In this document: piece after piece, positions 25,181 to 40,280 of the stretch
Layout: each line of letters begins with the position of its first letter
Numbering within the stretch: position 1 is the stretch's first letter
DNA from: a virus
Reading direction: 5' to 3' (one strand)
DNA: 40,280 nt
IMG/VR virus record: IMGVR_UViG_3300013413_000001
Coordinates: 1 to 40,280 of that record
Notes under the pieces: model-generated
Database searches by the model: none
Told to the model about the DNA's origin: nothing
Seen by the model: the letters and a program-made list of their open reading frames with translations, nothing else
Program-made: the position numbers and the translations under genes

Positions 25181-26901
25181 GCTGGCTCCTTGCGCTTGGG
25201 CATCGATTGCGGATACCAACTCGGTTTCTCGTCCCGGTACTGGCCGGTGATCGGGTCATAGACGAGCTCGCAAAGCCCGACTTTTCCGTTTGCCTTCTTG
25301 CGGACCTTCTGCACGTGGACCTGTACGAACTTGGCTTCGTCGGTCACGTCACGGAACACGGTGATGCAGTTGTCCGCCTTGTTGCGCCAGTGGGCGGAGC
25401 CACTGACGTCGTAGGGGGTCGGGACCGGATACTTGCCGTCCTTGTCCTTGTAGAGCTTGGCCGGGTGAGCGACCAGCCAGACGTGAACCTGGCACTCTCG
25501 GGCAAACTTGCGGATGCGCGACAGGCACTGCGAGATGTGCTCCGTCTCGGAGATTTGCGCCACTCGGGAGTGGTCGATCTCATTCCACGGATCGATGACG
25601 AATCCCCGGATGCCGCGCTGCGACACCATTTCCTTGGCGATCTCGAGCAAGCCGTCCACAGTCGGGAACTCGGGCAGGATGAACGTGAAGTGGTCGTTCA
25701 GCCATGTAGTCGCCATGTCCACGTCAGCCGGCGTCATGCGTTCGGTCGGGCCAGCGTCAAACGGCTTGCCGGTGTACTTCTGCATGATCTTCTCGGCGTG
25801 GTAGCTCATCGGCTGGTTCTCGGGCGAGAAAATCCCGAACGTCCACCCTTGGTTCTTCGCCAGATTCACGCACAGGGCGTCCAGCCATTCCGACTTCCCG
25901 TGGCCTGGGATGCCGGTCACCAGCGTCCATTCCCCGGGCATCACCCGATAGAACGACTCGAGGCTGTGCCAACCAGGCGCCGTACCCTTGGGCATGCCAT
26001 GCCGGTAGTGGTCCCGGATTTCCTCGAGGAAGTCGACCACCCGGTAAGTCCCCTCGATCGGTAGGGGCTGCGCAGACTCGAGACATTCGGACAGAACATC
26101 GGCGCCATGGGTCAGAAGCACTTCGTTCGCGTCCTTACAGTCCTGCGGCCACGACACGACGAGGCACTTACCGCGGCCCAGCCGGCGCACCAGTTCTTCC
26201 TTGAGCCGCACGCCAGGCGCGTCGCTGTCGACGGCGATGATGTGGGTTTTCACCGTCTCGAGCACCGGATCAGCCAGGAAATCGAACTTGTTGGCGTAGC
26301 TCTTGGAGTCCGGGGCGGGTGCGCCGTCCGGGACCGATACGCAACTGGTATGCCCCGCCATCTCGATAGACAGCTTGTCGATCTCGCCCTCGACCCAGAT
26401 CAGGCATTCCGGCGAGATGTCGTTCACGCCGTACAGGATGCGCTCGGCGCCAGCCGCCATGCGAAAGAGCTTGTCCCGGGTCCGGTACTTGATGTTCACG
26501 ACCTCAGTGCCGCGGTAGTACGGAAACAGGATGCAACCCCGTTCTTCCTCGACCTGCGGGAAGTAGATGCTGCCCCGGGAGATGCGATTGCGCTGCAGCA
26601 CGTCCGCCGAGATGCCTCGAGTCTTGAACCACTCGACCACATCGTCTTCCGGCTTTTCCGCCTTGACCACGTATGCCGGCTTTGCGTAGGCCTTCACGAC
26701 CTCGGGGCGCTGCCATTCCCCGGCCTTCAGCGAGCCCGACCAGCCGCAATGCCAGCAGTTAAAAAGTCCGTCCGTCAGACTCACGTTCAGGCACGGATAG
26801 CGCGACTTCTTGCGCGAGCTCGAGCACTGCGGACACGTGGTCTTGTGCTCGCCGTGCGTGTGGTGGCCTACGTCGATTCGCAGATCAGCCCAGGTTTTCA
26901 C
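25177..26901 (-). CDS. Bifunctional primase-helicase (zinc finger + Toprim + DnaB/RecA-type helicase)
   Basis: It has CPQC...CWHC zinc-finger cysteines, a Toprim-like IWVEGEIDKLS...VDSDAPG and a Walker A GIPGHGKSEW. GTG start in a GTGA overlap. Confidence 0.8.
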   Translation of the reverse strand: MKTWADLRIDVGHHTHGEHKTTCPQCSSSRKKSRYPCLNVSLTDGLFNCWHCGWSGSLKAGEWQRPEVVKAYAKPAYVVKAEKPEDDVVEWFKTRGISADVLQRNRISRGSIYFPQVEEERGCILFPYYRGTEVVNIKYRTRDKLFRMAAGAERILYGVNDISPECLIWVEGEIDKLSIEMAGHTSCVSVPDGAPAPDSKSYANKFDFLADPVLETVKTHIIAVDSDAPGVRLKEELVRRLGRGKCLVVSWPQDCKDANEVLLTHGADVLSECLESAQPLPIEGTYRVVDFLEEIRDHYRHGMPKGTAPGWHSLESFYRVMPGEWTLVTGIPGHGKSEWLDALCVNLAKNQGWTFGIFSPENQPMSYHAEKIMQKYTGKPFDAGPTERMTPADVDMATTWLNDHFTFILPEFPTVDGLLEIAKEMVSQRGIRGFVIDPWNEIDHSRVAQISETEHISQCLSRIRKFARECQVHVWLVAHPAKLYKDKDGKYPVPTPYDVSGSAHWRNKADNCITVFRDVTDEAKFVQVHVQKVRKKANGKVGLCELVYDPITGQYRDEKPSWYPQSMPKRKEPA

Positions 26902-27605
26902 AGTGCCAGCCTCGCTTTTTCTGGCGCCATCGCAGCCTCGATGTACGCCTTGGGTTCGATCTTCGGATTCGCCGCCAGATAGCCGATGACCTCTGACAGC
27001 TTCGTTTCGTTGCCTCGAGCATGCTTGCCGAGGAAAGAGCGCGCCGATTGCTCTGGGGTCCCCGCTTGCATCAACAGCCCCAACCCAACCGAGAAAATCA
27101 TCGCCTTCGGGGTGGTGAAATCTCCCGGTGCCGCGACTGCGGCTTCTGAACGTAGTGAAGAAGTAGTATTGGGATTGGGATTGGGATTGGGAGCTTTTGA
27201 GTTGGTTATTTCTGGGTTTCCACTTGCTAACCCAGAAATAACCGGGTGGGTTTCTTCTGGGTTAGCTGTGGGTTCTTTCTTGGTTTTAGGGCGTCCACCT
27301 TTTTTCCCGTTTGCTCGAGCGCGATCGGCCGCTTCGTTCGCCTTCACGATCTCTTCATCGCATCGTTTGTGGCGCCAACCGTCCGAAGCAAGGGCGAAAA
27401 ATTCCTTAACTACCTGCTCCACCGCCTTGCACTCTTCCTTCGAGCGAGCCACAACCAGGCGACAGACAGCCGCGAGATCTGCAGGAAGCGGCGCCTCACG
27501 GGTGTAATACAGGTCCAGCAGAAGACGGTACGCACCGTGCTCGAGCATCGTCAGATGCCGTGTGGCACTGTTGTAGTCTCCGATGTGGTGCGGGTAATAG
27601 TTCAT
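26898..27605 (-). CDS. DUF1376 (YdaU)-like replication-associated protein
   Basis: The N-terminus MNYYPHHIGDYNSATRHLTMLEHGAYRLLLDLYY is characteristic of the family. It has a basic linker with a (PN)4 repeat. Confidence 0.7.
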   Translation of the reverse strand: MNYYPHHIGDYNSATRHLTMLEHGAYRLLLDLYYTREAPLPADLAAVCRLVVARSKEECKAVEQVVKEFFALASDGWRHKRCDEEIVKANEAADRARANGKKGGRPKTKKEPTANPEETHPVISGLASGNPEITNSKAPNPNPNPNTTSSLRSEAAVAAPGDFTTPKAMIFSVGLGLLMQAGTPEQSARSFLGKHARGNETKLSEVIGYLAANPKIEPKAYIEAAMAPEKARLAL

Positions 27606-27778
27606 TCAGCCTTGCCTTCTGCGGTCACTTCCTTGGCGCAGTCTTTGATCCACTGGCAAAGAAGATCGGCCTGCTCCGGCGTGATGCGGATGACGTTGAG
27701 AGAACCCTCAGTGCGTTCTTGGCTGATGGAAATCACCCCTTCTTCCAAATACGCAACTTCAATGTCGAACATCCTCAT
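27602..27778 (-). CDS. Small hypothetical protein (58 aa)
   Basis: Hand-translated as MRMFDIEVAYLEEGVISISQERTEG...AEGKAE. The stop overlaps the next gene's start. It is absent from the ORF track because of the length cut-off. Confidence 0.45.
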   Translation of the reverse strand: MRMFDIEVAYLEEGVISISQERTEGSLNVIRITPEQADLLCQWIKDCAKEVTAEGKAE

Positions 27779-27781
27779 TTG

Positions 27782-27940
27782 CTACCCCTGCCGCTTAATC
27801 AATGCCGCCTTCATCGCCGCCGCCCATTTGCTGACACGCTTTGCTGTCGTGCCATCAGAGGCCATCTTTCTCGCCGTCCGGTGCGCCTCCGCAAAACTGC
27901 GCTGCGCGGGATCAAACTGCTTTGGTTCGTTTGGTTTCAT
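27782..27940 (-). CDS. Small basic hypothetical protein (52 aa)
   Basis: Internal ATG (MKPNEPKQ) in an ATGA overlap with the cII-like stop. Confidence 0.4.
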   Translation of the reverse strand: MKPNEPKQFDPAQRSFAEAHRTARKMASDGTTAKRVSKWAAAMKAALIKRQG

Positions 27941-28287
27941 GCGGCCCTCAGGGCTATCACTTCTTCCATTACCGTCAACTTGGCCTGATGCATCAGCCAT
28001 TGCTGCACGCCCCAGTTACCTGTCACCGCAGCCCAAGCGCTCAACTTCTCGGCCGGCAGACTGCGGCGAGTCGGCTTGTCATCCGCCGCCAGGTAATCCG
28101 ACATATGCGACGCGTAACACTCGGTAAGTTCGGCCAGCGTTCGTTGCGTCATGCCCTTGATCCGGCGATGCATCCACGACGCGCGGACTGCTTCGCGATA
28201 CGTACTGCAGGCTGCGATCACCTCTGCCGGAAGGAACGCCGGCGCATTCACCACCCCACCAAATAACCTCAGCTCATCCATGGCCAT
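27937..28287 (-). CDS. cII-like HTH regulator
   Basis: HTH-like MTQRTLAELTECYASHMSDYL, and it is the second gene of the leftward early operon after cro. Confidence 0.4.
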   Translation of the reverse strand: MAMDELRLFGGVVNAPAFLPAEVIAACSTYREAVRASWMHRRIKGMTQRTLAELTECYASHMSDYLAADDKPTRRSLPAEKLSAWAAVTGNWGVQQWLMHQAKLTVMEEVIALRAA

Positions 28288-28403
28288 CTCTCCAGAAGCT
28301 CCCCGTTAGCCAGAATTCATCGCGTACCTGCTTGAATTACCTGTTGGCCGCGACTTTTAATAAAAGCGCCGCTAAGGACGCCTTTGGAAAACTGATGACC
28401 GGC

Positions 28404-28670
28404 TTACTTCTTCGTCTTCTTTCTGCTCGACGTGCCGACTGGCGGCTGAACGTCATCGCTGGCGTCCTGGCTAAACTTGATTTCCTTCAGGAACAGGCCG
28501 GGATGTGCGATCTTTACGGATGGCGGGATACCCCTTTCCTTCCAGTTCTGGACCCGCTGGACGCCGCCATGGCGCACGTCATAGCCAAGGAGGAGCGCCA
28601 CTTTCGTGGGGCCTCCGAGGCCAATGACCAGCTGCCAGTCAGGGTGGATGGGAGTTCGTTTCGCGTTCAT
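28404..28670 (-). CDS. cro: Cro / YdaS-type HTH repressor
   Basis: GGPTKVALLLGYDV...VQRVQNWKERGIPP. It is divergent from cI across the operator region. Start at the internal ATG 28670. Confidence 0.65.
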   Translation of the reverse strand: MNAKRTPIHPDWQLVIGLGGPTKVALLLGYDVRHGGVQRVQNWKERGIPPSVKIAHPGLFLKEIKFSQDASDDVQPPVGTSSRKKTKK

Positions 28671-28676
28671 GCGTAT

Positions 28677-28705
28677 ATTAAACATGACGTTTAACGGAAA
28701 GTCAA
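28677..28705 (-). promoter_or_regulatory. Leftward early promoter (PR-like): TTGACT-17 nt-TTTAAT
   Basis: Read on the minus strand. The -10 element ends 6 nt before the cro ATG, which predicts a leaderless or near-leaderless mRNA. Confidence 0.55.
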
Positions 28706-28718
28706 ACACCGCGTTTAT
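28678..28718. promoter_or_regulatory. Two 17-bp operators (TTAAACATGACGTTTAA and TCAAACACCGCGTTTAT), AAAC-N5-GTTT type
   Basis: The palindromic half-sites have centres 24 bp apart. They overlap the -10 and -35 elements of the leftward promoter. Confidence 0.6.
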
Positions 28719-28752
28719 CAACGAAACGTTTACTCGTGAGAACATCCGCGGC

Positions 28753-29490
28753 ATGCACGAAACCATGGTTCGCCTCTACGAGGCCGCGAAGAAACTAAAG
28801 GGACTTGAGACGCCGACGGAGGTGGCTCGGGCGCTGAATCAATCCCAGCAAACGGTCAACAACTGGGAGAGGAGGGGTATTTCCCAAGCGGGGATGTTGA
28901 AAGCACAAGCTTTGCTGGGGTGTAGCGCTACATATCTCCAAACAGGAGAGCCTCCGATGGAGGCTGTCAATCCCAAATCTGGTGCATATCAGATTGAAAC
29001 CAAACTTACTGAGAAGTCTGAAGCGCCTCCTTACAATGTGTCTCGGCTGCCAGACCCAAACACTCCGGTGGGCAGCTCTCCCGCGCGGCGTGTGTATGTC
29101 GTGGGACGGGCCAATGGCGGCCTACCTGAGCGAGTTTGGACGGATGGCGGGTATCTTGTGGGCGCAACAGAAGAATTTGCAGTACTGGCGACGGATGACC
29201 CGTATGCCTTTCTTACCCCGGTCATTGGTACATCCATGGTACCGGTCTACAACCCCGGGGATTTTGCGTTTGTCGAGCCAGGCACAGAGGTTGATCTCGG
29301 TGATGATGTCTTGGTCAGACTGAACACCGGGGAGACGCTCCTAAAGCGGCTGCTTGTCAGGCGACCAGACGGCATGCAACTTGGCTCATATGGAGAGCCC
29401 GGCACGCTCTACTTCAAGCCAGATGAGATCACATGGATGTACTACGTGGCCCACCCAGTCAGGCGCAAGAAGATCAAAACGCGGTTCTAA
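28753..29490 (+). CDS. cI: CI-type repressor (N-terminal HTH + S24 LexA-like peptidase domain)
   Basis: HTH PTEVARALNQSQQTVNNWERRG, with a C-terminal VIGTSMVPVYNPGD (Ser) and LLKRL (Lys). The start may be 28753 or 28765. Confidence 0.85.
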   Translation: MHETMVRLYEAAKKLKGLETPTEVARALNQSQQTVNNWERRGISQAGMLKAQALLGCSATYLQTGEPPMEAVNPKSGAYQIETKLTEKSEAPPYNVSRLPDPNTPVGSSPARRVYVVGRANGGLPERVWTDGGYLVGATEEFAVLATDDPYAFLTPVIGTSMVPVYNPGDFAFVEPGTEVDLGDDVLVRLNTGETLLKRLLVRRPDGMQLGSYGEPGTLYFKPDEITWMYYVAHPVRRKKIKTRF

Positions 29491-29501
29491 TCCGCCCCCG
29501 T

Positions 29502-29531
29502 AGCCCACCCTTCGCGGTGGGCTTTTTCTTG
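29502..29531 (+). terminator. Rho-independent terminator after cI
   Basis: AGCCCACC-CTTCGC-GGTGGGCT followed by TTTTTCTTG. Confidence 0.7.
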
Positions 29532-29585
29532 TATGTGCCTTGTATGTAACTGATCGCTAACACTTCGTTACCCTTTGCAACGATT

Positions 29586-29610
29586 GCCGCCCATGAGGCG
29601 GTTTTTTGTT
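29586..29610 (+). terminator. Second plus-strand rho-independent terminator
   Basis: GCCGCC-CATGA-GGCGG followed by TTTTTTGTTG. Confidence 0.55.
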
Positions 29611-29652
29611 GTCAAGAAACTACACACCATGTTTCATCTTTTTCTCCCTTCG

Positions 29653-29693
29653 CTAAACATAGCGTTTGACACGTTTATAAACATGGTGTTTAA
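29653..29693. promoter_or_regulatory. Two 17-bp operators (CTAAACATAGCGTTTGA and ATAAACATGGTGTTTAA) of the same AAAC-N5-GTTT type
   Basis: Same motif and same 24-bp centre spacing as at 28678-28718. They overlap the -35 and -10 elements of the rightward promoter. Confidence 0.6.
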
Positions 29694-29694
29694 T
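29666..29694 (+). promoter_or_regulatory. Rightward early promoter (PL-like): TTGACA-17 nt-TTTAAT
   Basis: Consensus -35 hexamer, 17-nt spacer and a near-consensus -10 hexamer, lying 35 nt upstream of the ATG at 29729. Confidence 0.6.
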
Positions 29695-29728
29695 AAGATC
29701 CATCAACCCGCACCGATGGAGCAGAGAG

Positions 29729-30778
29729 ATGCAAGAGCACGACAAGAGCGCAGAAACGATCGTCAGTTACAAGGGCTTCAAATCCGACTGGACTTGCCGC
29801 GGCTTCCAGTACGCATTGGGCGAGTCCTACGAACACAAGGGCGAAGTCGCTGCGTGCGAAGGCGGCTTCCACGCCTGCGAAGATCCGCTGCACGTTCTGC
29901 GCTACTACTCGCCGGCCAAGTCGCGTTACGCCGTTGTCGAGCAATCGGGTGCGCTGAGCCGCCACGAGGAAGACTCGAAGGTAGCCAGCTCGCGTATCAA
30001 CATCAAGGCCGAGATTGATCTCGTTGGCCTGATCAAGGCTGGCATCAAGTGGCGCATCGATCGTTGCACGCCGGTCGAAGACAAGACCTCGCATCTGGAT
30101 AACGCAGCAGTGACAGCCAAGGGTCGGAACGAATCGGCGGCGTCATCGGGCGACTCCGGCGCTGCCACTGCATCGGGCAACTACGGCGCTGCCACTGCAT
30201 CGGGCGACTACGGCGCTGCCACTGCATCGGGCGACTCCGGCGCTGCCACTGCATCGGGCGACTCCGGCGCTGCCACCGCATCGGGCTACTCCGGCGCTGC
30301 CACTGCATCGGGCGACTCCGGCGCTGCCACTGCATCGGGCAACTACGGCGCTGCCACTGCATCGGGCGACTCCGGCGCTGCCACTGCATCGGGCGACTCC
30401 GGCGCTGCCACTGCATCGGGCAACTACGGCGCTGCCACTGCATCGGGCGACTCCGGCGCTGCCACCGCATCGGGCTACTCCGGCGCTGCCACCGCATCGG
30501 GCAACTCCGGCGCTGCCACTGCATCGGGCTACTCCGGCGCTGCCACTGCATCGGGCTACTCCGGCGCTGCCACTGCATCGGGCTACTACGGCGCTGCCAT
30601 GTCGAGCGGCCGCAACGGCAAATCCCAGGGTAAGAAAGGTTGCGCGCTGTTCCTCGTCTACCGCGACGCGAACTGGAAGATTGTCCACGCCAAGGCGGCA
30701 ATCGTCGGTCAGAGCGGCATCAAGGCAGATACGTTCTATCGCCTGAATGCCGATGGCGAGTTTGTTGAAGTGGAGTAA
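29729..30778 (+). CDS. Tandem-repeat protein: Cys/His-containing N-domain, 17 x 9-aa SG(D/N/Y)(S/Y)GAATA repeats, beta-rich C-domain
   Basis: ATG with a GGAG SD. The N-terminus reads KGFKSDWTCRGFQY...CEGGFHACEDPLHVLRYY. The repeat block was read directly. This is the first ORF behind the operator-controlled promoter. Confidence 0.8.
   Translation: MQEHDKSAETIVSYKGFKSDWTCRGFQYALGESYEHKGEVAACEGGFHACEDPLHVLRYYSPAKSRYAVVEQSGALSRHEEDSKVASSRINIKAEIDLVGLIKAGIKWRIDRCTPVEDKTSHLDNAAVTAKGRNESAASSGDSGAATASGNYGAATASGDYGAATASGDSGAATASGDSGAATASGYSGAATASGDSGAATASGNYGAATASGDSGAATASGDSGAATASGNYGAATASGDSGAATASGYSGAATASGNSGAATASGYSGAATASGYSGAATASGYYGAAMSSGRNGKSQGKKGCALFLVYRDANWKIVHAKAAIVGQSGIKADTFYRLNADGEFVEVE
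30146..30604 (+). repeat. 17 head-to-tail copies of a 27-bp unit TCGGGC-NAC-TMC-GGCGCTGCCACYGCA (last copy degenerate)
   Basis: Counted by hand and in frame with the CDS. Units differ only at nt 7 (G/A/T), nt 11 (C/A) and nt 24 (T/C, synonymous). Confidence 0.9.
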
Positions 30779-30781
30779 GCC

Positions 30782-31039
30782 ATGCAAGCCCTACACCCCA
30801 TCTTCGCGGACATCGTGTCCACATGGATTCCGCCGCAGCCTGCAGGTGTGACCGTCCGCCAGACGCGCTTCACGTCACCCATGGAAATCGAGTTTCGCGG
30901 CATCGACCGTGAAGCTGTGCAGCAGGCCGCAGAGCGTCGCAAGAACGGGCTCGACTCTTACCGTAGCCCCGCCGTGTCGATGACGCGCATGGAGCAAGGC
31001 GAGTGGGTGACGACGCTTCGGTTTTACGCAGTGGACTGA
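30782..31039 (+). CDS. Hypothetical early protein (85 aa)
   Basis: ATG 3 nt after the upstream stop. No motif recognised. Confidence 0.5.
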   Translation: MQALHPIFADIVSTWIPPQPAGVTVRQTRFTSPMEIEFRGIDREAVQQAAERRKNGLDSYRSPAVSMTRMEQGEWVTTLRFYAVD

Positions 31040-31059
31040 ACAACAACTAGGAGAGAGCA

Positions 31060-31404
31060 ATGCAAATCGAAGTTAAGGGCTTCGTGCTCGGCAAGAAGGA
31101 TTCGTGGCGCGATCACATCGACTACACGTTCCACACGGTGGAAATGCTGGAGCACGGCTACATGACGATTCAGCCGTACGTACTCCGCTTCGACCTACCG
31201 GAAGGCTTTGATCCACGCCTCGCGCAGATCGACATGCTGGAACGACAGAAGGAAAAACTCCGTGCTGACCTTGGCCGCCGCATCCAAGAGATCAACGAAG
31301 AGATCAGCAAGTTGCAAGCGATCTCGTATGTGATCGATGACGAGCCGCGGAAAAGACGCCGGCTGTTTCCGGCGACTTCACCGACATCCCGTTCTAAGGG
31401 GTAA
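31060..31404 (+). CDS. Hypothetical early protein (114 aa) with a coiled-coil segment
   Basis: AGGAGAGAG SD, and a helical segment LERQKEKLRADLGRRIQEINEEISKLQ. Confidence 0.55.
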   Translation: MQIEVKGFVLGKKDSWRDHIDYTFHTVEMLEHGYMTIQPYVLRFDLPEGFDPRLAQIDMLERQKEKLRADLGRRIQEINEEISKLQAISYVIDDEPRKRRRLFPATSPTSRSKG

Positions 31405-31406
31405 GC

Positions 31407-31676
31407 ATGAAAACCCTGCAAATCGAAATCGACGGCATCACCCTCCAAGTCACTGGCGTCTTCTGCGAAGGCTACGGCCCGACATGGAGCGATCCGGGCA
31501 TGGAGCCGAGCTTCGAGGTCTACGCGCTCACCGATAGTGGCGTGGACGTCCTGCATCTGCACGACGAAGCCGAAGTAGAGGCGCTGGCAATCGAAGCATG
31601 CCGCGCCGCCGACGAATATGAGCGCGATCACGCGGCAGAGTGCCGGCGTGAGGATGCGCGACTGGGGATGCTGTGA
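31407..31676 (+). CDS. Hypothetical acidic early protein (89 aa)
   Basis: ATG 2 nt after the upstream stop. Acidic composition. Confidence 0.5.
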   Translation: MKTLQIEIDGITLQVTGVFCEGYGPTWSDPGMEPSFEVYALTDSGVDVLHLHDEAEVEALAIEACRAADEYERDHAAECRREDARLGML

Positions 31677-31858
31677 TGCGACACCTTCCGGAAATCGACC
31701 CGCAGTTTGTTCGGCTCATGTCCGAAGAAACGCGAGAGGAAATTGCCAGGCAGTCGCGTGACCCGTGGGGTAGCGCGGCGCTCAAGGTGCTGTACGCGGT
31801 GCTGGCGCTCGTTGTGCTGGCTGTGGTGGTTTATCCGGTATGGGAGACGCTGAAATGA
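31676..31858 (+). CDS. Small membrane protein (60 aa)
   Basis: The ATG overlaps the upstream TGA. The C-terminus AALKVLYAVLALVVLAVVVYPVW is a TM segment. Confidence 0.5.
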   Translation: MRHLPEIDPQFVRLMSEETREEIARQSRDPWGSAALKVLYAVLALVVLAVVVYPVWETLK

Positions 31859-32268
31859 GTATGACCCCCGAGCAAAAGCTGAAGCACATGATCCTCGTAC
31901 ATTACGCCGGCCTGTATGAGCGCGCGCCTCGCGCACCGGAAAACGTGACGGCAGAGAACATCAACGCGCTGTACAGCGACGTCTACGACAACGACGACGG
32001 ATGCATTTTTGATGCGATCAACGAGGTGCGCAGCAGTGGCATCGAAACTGGCCTGAAGTGCGAGTGGTCGCGCCACTACGAGTCCGAGGCAGTCGCAACG
32101 CAGTACTTCGACAAGTCGTGGATCGGCTGGACCTATTGGTACGGCGGCGGCAAGCACGGCGAGCCGGAAGCCATCGACTGGATGGACGAGGCATATGACG
32201 TGACCTGCGCCGAGGAAGAAAAGATGGTCGTGGTGCGCACGTTCACCCGGCCCGAGGAGCAATCATGA
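31855..32268 (+). CDS. Hypothetical early protein (137 aa)
   Basis: ATGA overlap with the upstream gene. It has a conserved-looking WIGWTYWYGGGKHGEPEAIDW block. Confidence 0.55.
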   Translation: MSMTPEQKLKHMILVHYAGLYERAPRAPENVTAENINALYSDVYDNDDGCIFDAINEVRSSGIETGLKCEWSRHYESEAVATQYFDKSWIGWTYWYGGGKHGEPEAIDWMDEAYDVTCAEEEKMVVVRTFTRPEEQS

Positions 32269-32387
32269 GCAAGTGGATCGAACGCATGGATGCCGAGCAC
32301 CCGTTGCTGACCACGGTTGGCATGACGATTTTCATCCTCATCGGAATGGGGATGGCGGGATGGGCGGATTACCCACTGGCGGCCTAG
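32265..32387 (+). CDS. Small membrane peptide (40 aa)
   Basis: Hand-translated as MSKWIERMDAEHPLLTTVGMTIFILIGMGMAGWADYPLAA, with an ATGA overlap with the upstream gene. Confidence 0.4.
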   Translation: MSKWIERMDAEHPLLTTVGMTIFILIGMGMAGWADYPLAA

Positions 32388-32389
32388 CC

Positions 32390-32650
32390 ATGGACGCGCT
32401 GCAGTGGTGGGCGCAATGCGGTAGCCGGGAAGAGGCCGCAGAGCAGGAATCCCTGATCGAGTGCATGGAGTGGTACGAAGCCAGGCGCGATCAGTTCAAC
32501 CAATCAGACAAGGAATCAGACCATGAGCATCGCAACCATGATCATCGGGGAGAGCGGAACGGGCAAGAGCACGAGCCTGCGCAATCTAGATCCGAACAAC
32601 ACGCTGCTGATCCAGGCAGTGAGGAAGCCCCTCCCTTTCCGCTCCATTGA
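32390..32650 (+). CDS. Small hypothetical protein whose 3' part overlaps the Sak4-like gene by 128 nt
   Basis: The ATG follows the previous stop by 2 nt. The first ~44 codons have coding-like third-position GC. The overlapping tail does not. Confidence 0.35.
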   Translation: MDALQWWAQCGSREEAAEQESLIECMEWYEARRDQFNQSDKESDHEHRNHDHRGERNGQEHEPAQSRSEQHAADPGSEEAPPFPLH

Positions 32651-33185
32651 CTGGAAGCCGGTTGTAAAGGGCCAAGGCGGCTCGGTATTCGTGACTGACC
32701 ACAGCGACAAGATCGTCGGCGCGATGCAGCGCACGGACAAGGAAATCATCGTAATTGATGACTTCCAGTACGTGCTGGCAAATGAGTTCATGCGCCGCGT
32801 GACGGACAACGAGCAAGGAAACAGTGCTTTCGCCAAGTACAACGAGATCGCCCGACATGCGTGGGATGTCTTGATGGCGGCAAGCTCCCTGCCGGATCAC
32901 AAGCGCGTCTACATCCTGAGCCACACCAGCACCGATGACTTCGGCAAAACGAAGATCAAGACCATTGGGAAGCTGCTGGACGAAAAAATCGTCATGGAGG
33001 GGCTTGTCACCATTGTCTTGCGTACCGGCGTGACGAATGGCGAATACACCTTCAGCACCAAGAACAACGGCCAAGACACCGTAAAGGCACCGCTTGGCCT
33101 CTTTGAATCCGACCTGATCGAGAACGACCTCGCCATGGTGGATGCGGCGATTGCCGATTACTACAACCTCAAGCAAGCAGCCTGA
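32523..33185 (+). CDS. Sak4-like RecA-fold ATPase (single-strand annealing / recombination)
   Basis: It has an N-terminal Walker A IIGESGTGKST and Walker B-like IIVIDDF. Its size and its pairing with the downstream SSB-like gene are typical. Confidence 0.65.
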   Translation: MSIATMIIGESGTGKSTSLRNLDPNNTLLIQAVRKPLPFRSIDWKPVVKGQGGSVFVTDHSDKIVGAMQRTDKEIIVIDDFQYVLANEFMRRVTDNEQGNSAFAKYNEIARHAWDVLMAASSLPDHKRVYILSHTSTDDFGKTKIKTIGKLLDEKIVMEGLVTIVLRTGVTNGEYTFSTKNNGQDTVKAPLGLFESDLIENDLAMVDAAIADYYNLKQAA

Positions 33186-36147: not shown

Positions 36148-36624
36148 ATGGATACGCCTTGCATCATCTGGCCGAACTGCAAAGACAAGTTCGGCTATGG
36201 ACAAGTCAGGCACAAAGGGAAGATGGTTAAGGCGCATCGTCTTGCGTACTGCCGCCATCACGGCTTGGACATCCATGCGCTTAATGGTCTCGTGATCCGC
36301 CATAAGTGCGACAACACAAGCTGCGTCAATCCAGAACATCTGGAGACTGGAACCAATGACCAGAACATGGCCGATATGGTGAAGCGCGGCAGATCCCCAT
36401 GCGGGGAGCGAAATGCTCAGGCCAAACTAACGGCTGCTCAGGTTTTGGAGATCGTGGCGACGTACGTCCATGGCAGCAAAGAATTCGGAGCACGCGCACT
36501 TGCCGAGAAACACGGCGTAGTGCCAGCCTCGATTACGGAAATCATGACTGGGAAGAAATGGAAGTCTGTCACCGCTGGAATATTGAGCCAGCGCGAGCGG
36601 CAACAGGAGGCGGATCGTGGCTAA
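36148..36624 (+). CDS. HNH endonuclease
   Basis: VKAHRLAY...IRHKCDNTSCVNPEHLETGTNDQNMAD is a classic HNH core. AAGGAG SD. Confidence 0.8.
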   Translation: MDTPCIIWPNCKDKFGYGQVRHKGKMVKAHRLAYCRHHGLDIHALNGLVIRHKCDNTSCVNPEHLETGTNDQNMADMVKRGRSPCGERNAQAKLTAAQVLEIVATYVHGSKEFGARALAEKHGVVPASITEIMTGKKWKSVTAGILSQRERQQEADRG

Positions 36625-36856: not shown

Positions 36857-37214
36857 GAATCTGAATGCATCGGCAATCGCCGACGCACTGGAAGCAGAAT
36901 ATCTGGCCGTCGCAAATGGGCAGAAGAAGCCCGGGAAGATAGATCTTGAAGCGATGGTGCGAGCTGTGCAGATTATCCGAGAACTGGAGCGCGCCAGCCA
37001 GCCTGGTGGCGGGGAGGTACTCAGCGGATATGTGGCCGTACCTGCGGAGCCGACCGAGCAATGGTGCAAGCGGCTTTCCGAGAAAAGCTACGGCACCGGT
37101 TACGTTAGCGACAAGGCACGGCTCAAGTTCTGCGAGAACGTCATCCGCGATGTTCTCTCTACTGCGCCTCAGGTAGACGCAGCCCGCGCCGCGCTGGCCG
37201 GAAGGGAGGGGTGA
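36849..37214 (+). CDS. Hypothetical protein (121 aa)
   Basis: Internal ATG (MAENLNAS) overlapping the upstream stop by 8 nt. Confidence 0.5.
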   Translation: MAENLNASAIADALEAEYLAVANGQKKPGKIDLEAMVRAVQIIRELERASQPGGGEVLSGYVAVPAEPTEQWCKRLSEKSYGTGYVSDKARLKFCENVIRDVLSTAPQVDAARAALAGREG

Positions 37215-38455
37215 TGCGATACCTATCCGTTTGTTCCGGAATCGAAGCCGCGAGCTGCGCCTGGCACCCGATGGGATGGAGCTCGTTCGCCTTCAGTGAG
37301 GTGGATCGGTTTCCGTCCGAAGTTCTAGCGCACCACTACCCGACCGTGCCCAACCTGGGCGACATGACCAAGTTCAAGGACTGGCCCGATGCAACTATCG
37401 ATCTTCTCGTCGGAGGAACACCTTGCCAATCCTTCAGCGTCGCGGGACTTCGAAAGGGACTGGCTGATCCGCGTGGCAACCTCATGCTCACCTATCTTGC
37501 CATTGCTGAGCGCTACGCTCCCAAGTGGCTGGTTTGGGAAAACGTCCCCGGTGTCCTGTCTTCAAACCAAGGACGGGATTTTGGCACCTTGCTCGGGGGG
37601 CTGGCAGAACTCGGGTATGGGTTCGCCTACCGCGTTCTTGACGCTCAATACGTCCGAGTGGAATCACACTCTCGCGCCGTCCCTCAGCGACGTCGGCGTG
37701 TGTTCGTTGTTGGACATCTTGGAGACTGGCGACGTGCCGCCGCAGTACTTTTTGAGCGCGAGAGCATGCTCGGGCATCCTGCGCCGCGCCGCCAAGCGGG
37801 GGAAGCAGTTGCCGGATGCCTTAGCCCGGGCGCTCATCCAGGTGGCTTCAATGGACAGGACGCATACGAAAACAAGTTGATACCCGAAATTGCTCGCGCG
37901 CTGACGACCAGCAACCAGAGAATTGATGCGGAGACGGAGACGTTGCTCGTTGCGCATTCCCTACGCGCTGAAGGCTTTGACGCCAGTGAGGACGGCACGG
38001 GCCGCGGGACGCCGCTGATTCCTGTGCCGTTCGACACCACGCAGATCACTAGCAAGGCTAATTACAGCAATCCGCGCCCTGGTGATCCGTGCCATCCGCT
38101 GGCGGCTGGAGCTCATGCTCCAGCCATCGCCTTCGACTGCAAGTCAAGCGGCCAGAACGGTTTCGCTATCGGCGATATTGCTGGCACGCAGCGCGCGATG
38201 GGCCATGCGAACAGCCATACGAACGGCGGCGGTCACCAAGCTGTGGCCTATGGCAGCGCAGTGCGCCGTCTCACACCTCGCGAGTGCGAACGTCTGCAGG
38301 GCTTCCCTGATGACTACACCGCCATCCTGCGTGCATGCAAAGGCGCAAAAGATGGCCCGCGCTACAAAGCGCTTGGCAACAGCATGGCAGTCAACGTAAT
38401 GCGATGGATCGGCTCGCGCATCGATGACGTGAGCCAGTTACCGATAGCCGCCTAA
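37214..38455 (+). CDS. dcm: DNA (cytosine-5)-methyltransferase
   Basis: Motif I is SVCSGIE, motif IV PCQSFSVAG, motif VI ENVPG, motif VIII QRRRRVFVV, then RRLTPRECERLQGFPDDYT and motif X GNSMAVNV. The start could also be GTG at 37211. Confidence 0.9.
   Translation: MRYLSVCSGIEAASCAWHPMGWSSFAFSEVDRFPSEVLAHHYPTVPNLGDMTKFKDWPDATIDLLVGGTPCQSFSVAGLRKGLADPRGNLMLTYLAIAERYAPKWLVWENVPGVLSSNQGRDFGTLLGGLAELGYGFAYRVLDAQYVRVESHSRAVPQRRRRVFVVGHLGDWRRAAAVLFERESMLGHPAPRRQAGEAVAGCLSPGAHPGGFNGQDAYENKLIPEIARALTTSNQRIDAETETLLVAHSLRAEGFDASEDGTGRGTPLIPVPFDTTQITSKANYSNPRPGDPCHPLAAGAHAPAIAFDCKSSGQNGFAIGDIAGTQRAMGHANSHTNGGGHQAVAYGSAVRRLTPRECERLQGFPDDYTAILRACKGAKDGPRYKALGNSMAVNVMRWIGSRIDDVSQLPIAA
37389..37880 (+). 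CDS. 163-codon ORF fully embedded in dcm in the +1 frame (candidate overlapping gene)
   Basis: ATG is preceded by AAGGA at an 8-nt spacing. A hand count over 37680-37880 gives third-position GC of about 80 percent in this frame and about 52 percent in the dcm frame. The peptide contains CSLLDILETGDVPPQYFLSARACSGILRRAAKRGKQLP. Confidence 0.4.
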   Translation: MQLSIFSSEEHLANPSASRDFERDWLIRVATSCSPILPLLSATLPSGWFGKTSPVSCLQTKDGILAPCSGGWQNSGMGSPTAFLTLNTSEWNHTLAPSLSDVGVCSLLDILETGDVPPQYFLSARACSGILRRAAKRGKQLPDALARALIQVASMDRTHTKTS

Positions 38456-38917: not shown

Positions 38918-39112
38918 ATGAAAGTCAGCCTTGAGAAATGGGGAGCCAGGAACTATGATCCCGCTCCGCACATCGACACCCTCCGCGGCTGGGCGCGCGA
39001 CGGCAAAATCTACCCGCCGCCGCAGAAGGTGGGTCGCGCCTATTATGTGGACGAGCACGCGGTATTCAGCGCCGATGCTCGTCCCCGTCTCATCCATAGG
39101 ATCGCCGCATAA
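38918..39112 (+). CDS. xis: Excisionase (lambda Xis-like)
   Basis: SLEKWGARNY...IDTLRGWARDGKIYPPPQKVGRAYYVDEHAV parallels the lambda Xis N-terminal fold. It lies immediately upstream of, and overlaps, the int start. Confidence 0.7.
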   Translation: MKVSLEKWGARNYDPAPHIDTLRGWARDGKIYPPPQKVGRAYYVDEHAVFSADARPRLIHRIAA

Positions 39113-40197
39113 TGGCTGCACGCCCAAGGATCAAGAAGCGAGCCGACTGGCCGGCACACCTGCGCGAGCCACGGCCCGGCTATTACACGTGGGTTCACCC
39201 GGTTACCGGCAAGAGCTTCACGCTGGGACGTATTCCGCTGGCGCAGGCCATCTTTGAGGCGCATGAGGCCAACGCCTCCATTGCATCGCAGGCCACCCCA
39301 AAGAAGCTGGCAGAGCGCATCCAAGAGGGCGGCGAAACGGTTGCGGACCTGATCGCCAAGATGCCGACTGAAGGCATCGCGCACAGTACGGTACTGACGC
39401 GCCGGTCATTGGACAAGCGCATCCTCGCGGCCTTCGGTAGTCTCAAATGCACAGAAGTAGAGACGCGGCATGTTGCCAAGCTGATCGAGGACATCGAGAA
39501 GGAGGGGAAGGCGCGGACGGCGCAGGCCATGCGCAGCCACCTGACGAAACTATTTACGAAGGGGATGGCGCTAGGCTGGATGAACCAGAACCCGGCACTG
39601 GTGACCGAGGCTGTCAAGGTCAAGGTTGCGCGCGAGCGGCTGACGCTGGAACAGTTCCAGGCCATCCGCGCCAAGGCTGGTGAGGTATCCGACTGGCTGG
39701 AGAACGCCATGCTGCTGGCACTCGTCAGCGGGCAGGACCGGTCAACCATCGTCGCATGGGAGCGATCCACAATCGGCAAGGACGTGATCGTGGCGAGCCG
39801 CAGCAAGACGGGCGTCAAGATCGCCATTCCGCTGGACATCCGACTCGATGCCATTGGCCTGTCGCTGCGGGATGTGGTGGCGCGCTGCAAGGGAACCGGC
39901 GTGGTGAGCCGCTTTCTGGTGCACCACGTCAAGCAATGGCGCGGCACGAAGCGCGGTGATCCGGTCCACTATGACACGCTGTCGAACAAGTTCGCGGAGG
40001 CCCGGGCCCTGGCAAAGATCCCCGGTGAGAACCCGCCTACGTTCCACGAGATACGCAGTCTGGCGAAGCGGCTATACGAGGCGCAGGGGAACGTCGACAC
40101 CAAGGCGTTGCTTGGTCACAAGACGCAGAAGATGGCGGATCTGTACGCCGATGCGCGCGGGATTGAGCCGATCAAAGTACGCATTGCGGCGCGGTAA
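39112..40197 (+). CDS. int: Tyrosine integrase (lambda Int family)
   Basis: It has an N-terminal arm-binding-like region and a C-terminal HEIRSLAKRLY...LLGHKTQKMADLYAD, giving the HxxR, H and Y catalytic pattern. Confidence 0.9.
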   Translation: MAARPRIKKRADWPAHLREPRPGYYTWVHPVTGKSFTLGRIPLAQAIFEAHEANASIASQATPKKLAERIQEGGETVADLIAKMPTEGIAHSTVLTRRSLDKRILAAFGSLKCTEVETRHVAKLIEDIEKEGKARTAQAMRSHLTKLFTKGMALGWMNQNPALVTEAVKVKVARERLTLEQFQAIRAKAGEVSDWLENAMLLALVSGQDRSTIVAWERSTIGKDVIVASRSKTGVKIAIPLDIRLDAIGLSLRDVVARCKGTGVVSRFLVHHVKQWRGTKRGDPVHYDTLSNKFAEARALAKIPGENPPTFHEIRSLAKRLYEAQGNVDTKALLGHKTQKMADLYADARGIEPIKVRIAAR

Positions 40198-40280
40198 TTC
40201 GGAACGAATTCGGAACAAATTCGGAACACCCCGCGCCAGCATTGGGTTTCCGGTTCGATCTGCCTCCACGCCCTGCGGGC
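40154..40280. repeat. Second copy of the 127-bp terminal duplicate
   Basis: Identical to 1-127. It spans the int 3' end (to 40197) and the first part of the putative attP region. Confidence 0.9.

Follow-up and report, generated by a model that had tools for sequence, protein, structure and literature searches.

An early phage gene encodes a DUF7666 protein with a nine-residue tandem repeat in which only two adjacent residues vary

What kind of protein holds seven residues of every nine constant along an array while the remaining two neighbors change from unit to unit, and what might such a protein do for a phage that makes it early? The question is raised by a 349-residue open reading frame (ORF) in IMG/VR virus record IMGVR_UViG_3300013413_000001, whose positions 1 to 40,280 were analyzed as a single stretch of DNA (the window). 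The encoded protein joins a conserved N-terminal head domain of family DUF7666 to an array of nine-residue units and a small C-terminal domain, and the same two adjacent unit positions are hypervariable across the whole family. Our favored answer, to which we assign a probability of roughly 45%, is that the array serves as a β-structured scaffold on which a hypervariable ladder of recognition residues is displayed; unequal recombination would renew the ladder, and the conserved head would be attached to the scaffold. The gene has the following parts:

29729-30778, + strand: DUF7666 repeat protein gene, ATG start, 349 amino acids, from the ORF table
29718-29721, + strand: likely ribosome-binding site of the repeat gene, GGAG, 7 nucleotides (nt) before the ATG
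29759-30037, + strand: DUF7666 N-terminal domain, residues 11 to 103 (Pfam PF24703, E = 4.2e-36, 123.8 bits against a cut-off of 27)
30146-30604, + strand: repeat array, 17 units of 27 nt, SG[DNY][SY]GAATA, from in-frame reading, with variable nucleotides at unit positions 7 and 11
30605-30631, + strand: degenerate 18th unit, SGRNGKSQG, at the transition into the C-terminal domain (family consensus SGxxGKARG)
30626-30775, + strand: small C-terminal β domain, residues 300 to 349, with four predicted strands in an AlphaFold2 model and present in all nine-residue-repeat members examined

The first-pass annotation, made from the letters of the window alone, had described 17 head-to-tail copies of a 27-bp unit with two amino acid-changing sites and one synonymous site, and this proved exact when the sequence was read again. 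Units 1 to 16 are all full and, in the frame starting at 30146, follow TCGGGC-NAC-TMC-GGCGCTGCCACYGCA, which reads SG[DNY][SY]GAATA; unit 17 is SGYYGAAMS. The only variable columns among the 16 full units are nt 7 (G in 8, A in 4, T in 4), nt 11 (C in 12, A in 4), and the synonymous nt 24 (T in 13, C in 3). Tandem Repeats Finder, run on the window, placed the array at 30144-30599 with period 27, 16.9 copies, 94% matches, and a score of 793. All six combinations of D, N, or Y with S or Y are present among the 17 units (DS 7, YS 4, NY 3, and DY, NS, and YY once each). The array has a charge of -8.5 and an isoelectric point (pI) of 4.05 and contains no basic residue; the pI of the whole 349-residue protein is 5.55.

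Similar N termini followed by SG-rich 9-mers had been mentioned at first reading for uncharacterized phage and bacterial proteins, and this was right: homolog searches recovered a very large family. The full protein matches PHROG 4433 (E = 2.7e-106, 356.5 bits), the DUF7666 match spans profile positions 1 to 94 of 95, and the C-terminal part matches phrog_27197 (E = 9e-16); PF24703 and PHROG 4433 are both without an assigned function. A nine-residue period with only two adjacent variable columns, in 5 to 22 copies, was found in 119 of the 120 best homologs, and in essentially every one the pair varies far more than the other seven residues of the unit. The pattern in the window is therefore no local accident, and the outcome that the first-pass annotation had named as refuting, homologs without excess variability at the pair, is clearly not what is seen. 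The variable pair takes 81 dipeptide types across the 119 proteins. Pooled, position 1 is most often Y (447), D (415), or N (251), followed by T, E, W, R, and H, and the leading residues at position 2 are S (510), Y (337), R (168), Q (167), and W (72), with C, G, and H after them. Position 1 seldom has His and position 2 seldom has Phe, although each is one mutation from the common codons; the alphabet of the pair is therefore shaped by selection, with mutational access not the sole cause. The two positions are also non-independent (86 arrays; chi-square P = 1.5e-9). Of the same 86 arrays, 56 have a net negative charge at the variable positions, 20 are neutral, and 10 are positive; Arg and Trp are frequent there.

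The unit itself is recognizable over long distances. It reads TG[NDY][WQ]SAATN in Salmonella phage ES18, TG[DNY][QRYH]SAASN in Pseudomonas phage phi2 and in Vibrio phage 1.185.O, TG[YDN][RWC]GASSN in Blautia phage Montmirail, and SG[YTND][QRYI]GAATA in cyanophage Pan4; an [ST]G-[DNY]-x core is common to Vibrio, Blautia, Bacteroides, and Pseudanabaena phages and recurs, in 5-mers, in Clostridioides difficile. Among the 149 representatives that score best for the head domain, about 95 have repeats of this nine-residue kind or of a multiple of that length, so that the repeat array is present in most of the best-scoring DUF7666 members. We delimit the nine-residue repeat subfamily by the head domain, at least five tandem [ST]G-x-x-[GS]A[AS][ST][AN] units in which only x-x varies, and a conserved C-terminal β domain, and the window protein has all of these. 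With ES18 gp53, phi2 gp13, and Hyacinthe 8G_00057 it has in common the head domain, the 9-mer array with two variable residues, the C-terminal cap, and an early placement downstream of a repressor; it differs in its backbone (SG..GAATA here, TG..SAATN or TG..SAASN in the enterobacterial and Pseudomonas members) and in its variable alphabet of D, N, or Y with S or Y. The homolog in C. difficile phage AR1086-1 (1483-2430) has the same head followed by 5-mers, NTG[YND]x, and an unrelated C terminus. These 5-mers match Pfam Pentapeptide_2 (PF01469, the xNxGx repeat of mycobacterial PPE-MPTR proteins; E = 6e-22), a family not matched by the window protein, and the comparison suggests that the 9-mer may be a 5-mer core plus four residues.

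How the array is kept uniform can be read from its codons. In each gene compared, the backbone uses one gene-specific set of synonymous codons, fixed across all units: TCGGGC..GGCGCTGCCACTGCA in the window gene, ..GGCGCGGCCACGGCA in Hyacinthe, ..GGCGCAGCCACCGCT in a Cupriavidus prophage, and AGCGGC..GGTGCTGCCACGGCC in metagenomic phage L005. The polymorphic codons are the same two in every gene, and several unit types survive the homogenization. Because the backbone is homogenized within genes and only synonymous differences separate one gene from another, the units evolve in concert, with the backbone peptide under purifying selection.

Unit number and order turn over much faster than the flanks. 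In six Pseudomonas aeruginosa phages, the DNA of the head and tail flanks is 87 to 99.5% identical and the arrays have 8, 9, 12, 15, 26, and 27 units, built from the same three unit types (YQ, NR, DY, with occasional recombinant DR and NQ) in unrelated orders. Phages YA3 and Flu_PA14_4, with flanks 99.5% identical, are similar in unit composition and unrelated in unit order. Because all three unit types persist in every Pseudomonas array while all else is homogenized, the comparison argues that the mixture of types is selected. The 27-unit array of phage YA3 (277-1626) contains a near-exact duplication of an 11-unit block (YQ DY YQ DY YQ DY NR NR NR NR NR), which we read as direct evidence of multi-unit unequal crossing-over. 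In four clusters built at 90% identity, full-length members differ by exact multiples of nine amino acids (in one cluster 251, 260, 269, 278, 287, 296, 314, 323, and 350 amino acids), and many other cluster members are labeled partial, their contigs ending inside the array. The copy-number instability anticipated for so perfect a tandem array is thereby borne out at the family level, between close relatives.

The same property leaves traces in public records. In Acinetobacter phage fEg-Aba01 (3471-4300), the array and C-terminal domain are out of frame with the head, with the shift at the A-run GATAAAGAC; in Pseudomonas phage TC7 (1477-2451), the frame shifts inside the array, and the Emek record is annotated "with frameshift." Out-of-frame translations of the repeat, such as QLSKLCYW and QRRPRA, occur in at least 7 of the 149 representative proteins. 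These frame breaks are probably indel errors or pseudogenes, although genuine frameshifting is conceivable. More generally, the arrays break short-read assemblies, cause false frameshifts and partial gene calls, and are mislabeled as collagen, C-type lectin, ATPase, or CRISPR spacers; they could, on the other hand, serve as strain-typing markers for prophages.

The predicted structure gives the variable pair a place. AlphaFold2, run with a 60-sequence alignment, returned a mean predicted local distance difference test score (pLDDT) of 79, with more than 93 in the head, 90 to 94 in the C-terminal domain, and 63 to 73 in the array. Each array unit is modeled as a strand with the core AATAS plus a turn at G-x1, the strand extending to x2-G in about half of the units, and the variable pair is accordingly predicted at or next to turns. 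The last two units, degenerate yet conserved in the family (SGxxGKARG), run straight into the cap domain, which speaks against a floppy linker. A Foldseek comparison of the full model with the Protein Data Bank (PDB) returned nothing below E = 1; the best, nonsignificant resemblances are to parallel β-helices (VacA p55, pectate lyase, and left-handed β-helix acetyltransferases). Of the regular solenoid with an exposed ladder that the first-pass annotation had proposed, the strands and the turns holding the variable pair are thus present in the model, which is not disordered, but the confidence of the array is limited and the β-helix matches are not significant. A phmmer search of the protein against the PDB gave only collagen and other low-complexity matches, and the head-domain profile found nothing among PDB sequences. 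A PDB match of the tail profile was discarded as an artifact of matches of about 4 bits summed over polyubiquitin copies.

Within these bounds, the geometry that we favor is a flat solenoid with two units per 18-residue coil. Such a coil would account for strands made of small residues (Ala, Gly, and Thr), and it would be similar in length to four 5-mers of the pentapeptide-type relative. On the pattern of the RTX β-roll and the flat solenoids of Thr- and Ala-rich antifreeze proteins, folds with the same period of nine, two units per 18-residue coil would give a flat, two-sheeted solenoid with small residues inside and Gly or Asx turns; the strand and turn pattern of the array model fits this design, though the likeness is one of geometry and is drawn from a model of moderate confidence. 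The array has its period of nine in common with RTX nonapeptides (GGxGxDxUx), but its unit, SGxxGAATA, is unlike their consensus, no RTX-repeat family appeared in the Pfam scan of the window protein at E values up to 1, and, unlike RTX proteins, the window protein shows no secretion signal and no evidence of Ca2+ binding.

From these elements we propose the following mechanism. A cytoplasmic protein would be made once the repressor releases an early promoter resembling lambda PL (described below), and it would consist of three modules: the conserved DUF7666 head, the array of nine-residue units, and the small β cap. Each unit would contribute one short β-strand (AATAS) and one tight turn (G-x1-x2), and the array would form a regular β-structure, most likely the flat solenoid with two units per coil, whose corners bear a ladder of the two variable residues. 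That ladder would contact a partner, which may be a host or rival-phage component met early in infection; its residues are of the recognition type, Tyr, Asp, Asn, and Ser here and Arg, Gln, Trp, His, Thr, and Glu elsewhere. Three processes would keep the backbone identical (unequal recombination among the units, gene conversion among them, and purifying selection), and the same recombination would reshuffle, expand, and contract the array, changing its length and order faster than the rest of the gene. The head would act as a constant functional or adaptor module, joined in other viruses to other repeat scaffolds.

Several observations weigh against this proposal. The array pLDDT is only 63 to 73, and AlphaFold is inclined to build a solenoid from any perfect repeat. 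No significant structural match that would speak for a binding function came from the searches, no known defense or anti-defense family matched, PADLOC-DB had no match for the full protein, head, or tail at E ≤ 0.1, and the literature searched (by family names, ES18 gp53, and the repeat peptide) contains no published account of any family member. Asp and Asn at position 1 could be favored just because they suit tight turns. Unit order in the 86 arrays is indistinguishable from a shuffle at lags 1 to 6, and near-identical phages of the same host strain bear unrelated unit orders; random order would be unexpected for a defined surface that fits one conserved partner and would be in keeping with a function that depends on composition or valence, or with a very fast arms race. 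A period-2 or higher-order unit pattern, expected if the two edges of the solenoid differed, was looked for across the 86 arrays and not found.

Composition and valence are the core of the alternative that we rank highest, although we consider it unlikely. Here, the array would be a multivalent "sticker and spacer" chain in which it matters how many Tyr, Arg, Trp, Asp, and Asn side chains there are and in what mixture, but not in what order. It would work by avidity or by self-assembly, whether as a polymer, as a scaffold for condensates, or as a spacer of variable length, with no defined complementary surface. The statistically random unit order without lag periodicity, the match in composition and not in order between YA3 and Flu_PA14_4, and the freedom of array length to vary in single-unit steps all fit it, and motifs such as SGYSG and SGNYG are reminiscent of the [G/S]Y[G/S] stickers found in low-complexity domains. 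The spacer peptide, however, is under strong purifying selection: GAATA or SAASN shows only synonymous differences between distant genes, and the peptide is kept from Burkholderiales phages to a cyanophage, which points to a folded, regular structure. AlphaFold2 likewise gives strands, not coil, between folded domains at both ends. Charge suggests another role, that of an acidic DNA mimic, for which Ocr, ArdA, Gam, and pentapeptide-repeat proteins are precedents: an Asp ladder on a rigid β-helix would imitate the phosphate backbone and trap a host enzyme such as a restriction enzyme, RecBCD, or gyrase. A charged, nucleic acid-mimicking face had been suggested at first reading, and the window array is indeed acidic and free of basic residues; the variable positions are net negative in 56 of the 86 arrays, the gene adjoins recombination genes in the part of the operon where lambda has ral and gam, and one relative has pentapeptide-type repeats. 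The suggestion does not extend to the family, since 30 of the 86 arrays have no net negative charge at the variable pair, where Arg and Trp are frequent, and NR is mixed with DY in the Pseudomonas arrays. Moreover, a whole-protein pI of 5.55 is far less acidic than that of Ocr-type mimics, and Foldseek searches of the PDB with the full and head models found no structural match to any known mimic, so that we regard this role as quite improbable. No less doubtful is an enzyme with a targeting array, in which the head would be a divergent ADP-ribosyltransferase-like or other Cys/His enzyme and the array would select or hold its substrate, with T4 Alt, ModA, and ModB as early host-modifying precedents. 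The head-alone AlphaFold2 model (pLDDT 90) has PARP-like domains (ZC3HAV1/ARTD13, PARP16, and PARP14) and diphtheria toxin as its best Foldseek matches in the PDB, and these also appear for the full model; the depositors of the Acinetobacter phages labeled the homolog "putative ADP-ribosyltransferase," citing similarity to rifampin ADP-ribosyltransferase; and C23, C43, H48, Y60, K15, and K84 are invariant, in an alignment where G16, F17, G31, G38, G46, F47, P53, and A86 are invariant as well. But the fold matches are not significant (E = 0.3 to 2.3, probability ≤ 0.44, template modeling [TM] score ≤ 0.35; for the best, E = 0.3, probability 0.44, TM 0.34), hhalign of the head profile against Arr-2 (sequence checked against PDB 9iba) gave a probability of 0.2%, and the profile search of PDB sequences was empty. 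H48 and Y60 would supply part of a catalytic set of the H-Y-E/D type, but the head alignments hold no invariant Glu or Asp to complete it or an R-S-E set, and the domain, at about 95 residues, is below the size of the known ADP-ribosyltransferase core.

The order of units might instead carry information. A modular nucleic acid reader would bind one base of single-stranded RNA or DNA per unit through the variable pair, and order would spell the target; transcription activator-like (TAL) effectors are distinguished by just such repeats, nearly identical and hypervariable at two neighboring residues. The arrays of enterobacterial and Pseudomonas phages are limited to three unit types; in five of the six type entries, a residue able to hydrogen-bond is coupled with an aromatic one or with Arg (NW and YQ in ES18; YQ, NR, and DY in phi2; the sixth, DQ in ES18, does not), and order differs between phages as if it were informative. 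The case is purely compositional, however: no nucleic acid-binding fold or motif was found, many arrays have 5 to 11 unit types, the arrays of the window phage and its Burkholderiales relatives are acidic and lack a basic residue for the phosphate backbone, and the predicted β geometry is without precedent for base reading. We rate such a reader as very unlikely, and we hold out equally little hope for the broader idea of a programmable recognition code in which each unit reads one target element (an RNA or single-stranded DNA base, a polymer residue, or a sugar) and retargeting proceeds by recombining three to six unit types; were it true, it would be a β-strand counterpart of the TAL effector, PUF, and PPR codes, spread across thousands of phages and some giant viruses. 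That the array is of another nature altogether (a collagen-like or tail fiber protein, a CRISPR- or iteron-like DNA array, or the target of a diversity-generating retroelement) we find scarcely credible, although there are subthreshold matches to Pfam Collagen, NCBIfam Scl/Lcl, and tail fiber PHROGs, and one Vibrio phage record annotates the homologous array as CRISPR spacers. Collagen (PF01391) requires Gly at every third residue, whereas here Gly is at positions 2 and 5 of 9, and no Pfam stretch passes on its own; the Scl/Lcl collagen-like adhesin models score 58, 45, and 31 bits against cut-offs of 325, 500, and 400. A structural or tail fiber role disagrees with a gene in the early operon, on the strand opposite to the large ORFs of 1026-21263, which we take as the structural module, judging from their size and arrangement. 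Against a CRISPR or iteron array, the units abut without spacers and lie in frame within a conserved ORF, with only synonymous differences between genes. In a retroelement target, adenines would be expected to vary, but those at unit positions 8, 22, and 27 never do and position 11 is only C or A; no reverse transcriptase was found among the 20 neighboring ORFs scanned. As for the Vibrio phage 1.185.O record, its four "CRISPR spacers" (1872-2089) lie within the coding 27-nt array and are an annotation artifact.

Returning to the recognition-ladder scaffold, the family was catalogued but uncharacterized, and the principle of a repeat with two variable residues is known from TAL effectors. The window protein resembles these in its long tandem array of near-identical units with two adjacent variable residues, and the families are alike in that recombination changes unit number and order and the DNA is homogenized within the array. 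TAL effector units (known from Xanthomonas and Ralstonia), however, are α-helical and 33 to 35 residues long, and their target is double-stranded DNA, of which one base is read by the second variable residue, whereas the units here have nine residues and are predicted to be β; there is no sequence relation, and the TAL effector family is absent from the Pfam scan of the window protein. The head domain, the setting among early viral genes, and the breadth of the family are further differences. Lamprey variable lymphocyte receptors, designed ankyrin repeat proteins (DARPins), and minimal Tyr/Ser/Asp/Ala antibody libraries also place diversity at a few surface positions of a constant scaffold. 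The variable positions of the arrays are similarly enriched in Tyr, Ser, Asp, Asn, Arg, and Trp, but the folds differ, and diversity here comes from germline recombination between units, not from somatic assembly or design. The array is among the cleanest natural cases of a constant scaffold with two-residue diversity in each unit, renewed by recombination, and follows the same design principle as engineered repeat binders, TAL effectors, and variable lymphocyte receptors. Should the ladder prove to be a recognition surface, the family would represent a widespread, fast-evolving early phage function (host takeover, counter-defense, or phage-phage competition) and could offer binder engineering a new scaffold of compact size.

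The head domain is widespread. A head-domain profile search recovered 6,088 clusters at 50% identity at E ≤ 0.001 and 3,582 at E ≤ 1e-10; they belong to giant viruses and to phages that infect Proteobacteria, Firmicutes, Bacteroidetes, or Cyanobacteria. Homologs are present in phages of Ralstonia (Hyacinthe and relatives) and of Salmonella (ES18 gp53, SEN22, Emek), in about 28 P. aeruginosa phage records, in Acinetobacter, Vibrio, Blautia, Bacteroides, Pseudanabaena, Clostridioides, and Lactobacillus phages, and in prophages of Cupriavidus, Ralstonia, Burkholderia, Paraburkholderia, and Mesorhizobium. Because the closest relative (85% identity) lies in a prophage of Cupriavidus sp. EM10, the window phage probably infects one of the Burkholderiaceae. 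When 27000-33000 was searched against phage genomes by Megablast, no close relative was found, and the head DNA of ES18 gp53 had no match in complete Escherichia coli genomes. Among predicted viral structures, Foldseek placed the head in giant-virus entries named ankyrin-repeat or DUF4116 and in a phage entry named "Pentapeptide." In the window protein, the DUF7666 domain is followed by a helix (residues 98 to 112) and then a linker to residue 139 (nt 30145).

The early placement of the gene rests on the elements upstream of it:

28680-28692 and 28704-28716, + strand: two operator-like sites, between a divergent cro-like gene (- strand) and the repressor gene
28753-29490, + strand: repressor with S24 peptidase domain, cI/LexA type (Pfam Peptidase_S24, E = 3e-8)
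29502-29611, + strand: two tandem intrinsic terminators, with stems at 29502-29523 and 29586-29602, each followed by a T-run, from a terminator scan
29622-29634 (- strand), 29655-29667 (over the -35 element), and 29679-29691 (over the -10 element): three operator-like sites with motif AAACATNGYGTTT
29666-29694, + strand: early promoter TTGACA-17 nt-TTTAAT, with -35 at 29666-29671 and -10 at 29689-29694, read from the sequence

There is no ORF between this promoter and the repeat gene, which is thus, as had been noted initially, the first ORF behind a near-consensus promoter overlapped by two operators; a consensus promoter scanner omits the promoter because it demands A at position 2 of the -10 element. 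Motif AAACATNGYGTTT has five matches in the window (≤1 mismatch), against 0.19 expected by chance. The site at 29622-29634 sits 33 nt upstream of that at 29655-29667, and the center-to-center spacing of 24 nt is equal at the early promoter and in the cro/repressor region. Because the motif also occurs in the cro/repressor region, there is good evidence that the early promoter would be controlled by the repressor through operators common with the immunity region. The repressor is likely to start at ATG 28753 or 28765, because the longer ORF from 28606 would cross the operators. The tandem terminators may insulate the early operon from repressor transcription; lying about 60 nt apart between the repressor stop and the early promoter, they may provide double insulation in the lysogen or bracket a small RNA, and Rfam returned no match over the entire window, the terminator stretch 29502-29611 included.

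Downstream on the same strand follow small ORFs, an AAA_24 ATPase, a single-stranded DNA-binding (SSB)-like protein, Gp157, an HNH endonuclease, a C5 cytosine methyltransferase, and, last, a lambda-type integrase; Pfam and PHROG scans of the small ORFs were mostly without a match, and none linked them to the repeat gene. Beyond the immunity region in the other direction, and on the opposite strand, are the replication genes (DUF1376, primase-helicase). Because it has the same orientation as the repressor gene and the integrase at its end, the operon corresponds to that of lambda PL. The promoter had first been called a rightward early promoter; it is early and carries the operator motif, but it is rightward only in window coordinates. 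In ES18, gp53 follows an N-like antiterminator in an annotated PL operon, ahead of cIII and kil, so that N is first there, whereas the repeat gene is first in the window. In phi2, fEg-Aba01, the Cupriavidus prophage, and L005, the homolog lies zero to five small genes downstream of the repressor in the same orientation, with recombination genes (RecT, YqaJ) downstream of it in the latter two; in Vibrio, Blautia, and cyanophage genomes, it lies among replication and DNA metabolism genes. Across these gene maps, the repeat gene is consistently early, though not always first, and several unrelated temperate phages have it at or close to the beginning of their PL-type operon.

Several other features of the window deserve mention. 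The window ends, 1-127 and 40154-40280, are identical over exactly 127 nt, and because of this terminal identity we regard the contig, which stems from a JGI metagenome, as a circular assembly and a complete phage genome of about 40,153 bp (G+C, 59%). The HNH endonuclease (36148-36624) and the C5 cytosine DNA methyltransferase (37211-38455) both lie in the early operon, and self-protection against restriction is a plausible role for the latter. The 11-mer AATTCGGAACA occurs three times in tandem at 43-75 (and, since the window ends are identical, again at 40196-40228), where the lambda-type integrase gene (39112-40197) has its 3′ end, whose last two bases the copies overlap; they may be arm-type integrase sites or part of attP. 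ATTGGG is repeated 4.2 times in tandem at 27168-27192, inside the DUF1376 gene of the replication module (26898-27605, - strand), and may be an iteron-like origin element. Finally, a GDSL-family lipase/acylhydrolase gene (291-1022, + strand) adjoins the - strand block of large ORFs and may encode a surface polysaccharide esterase.

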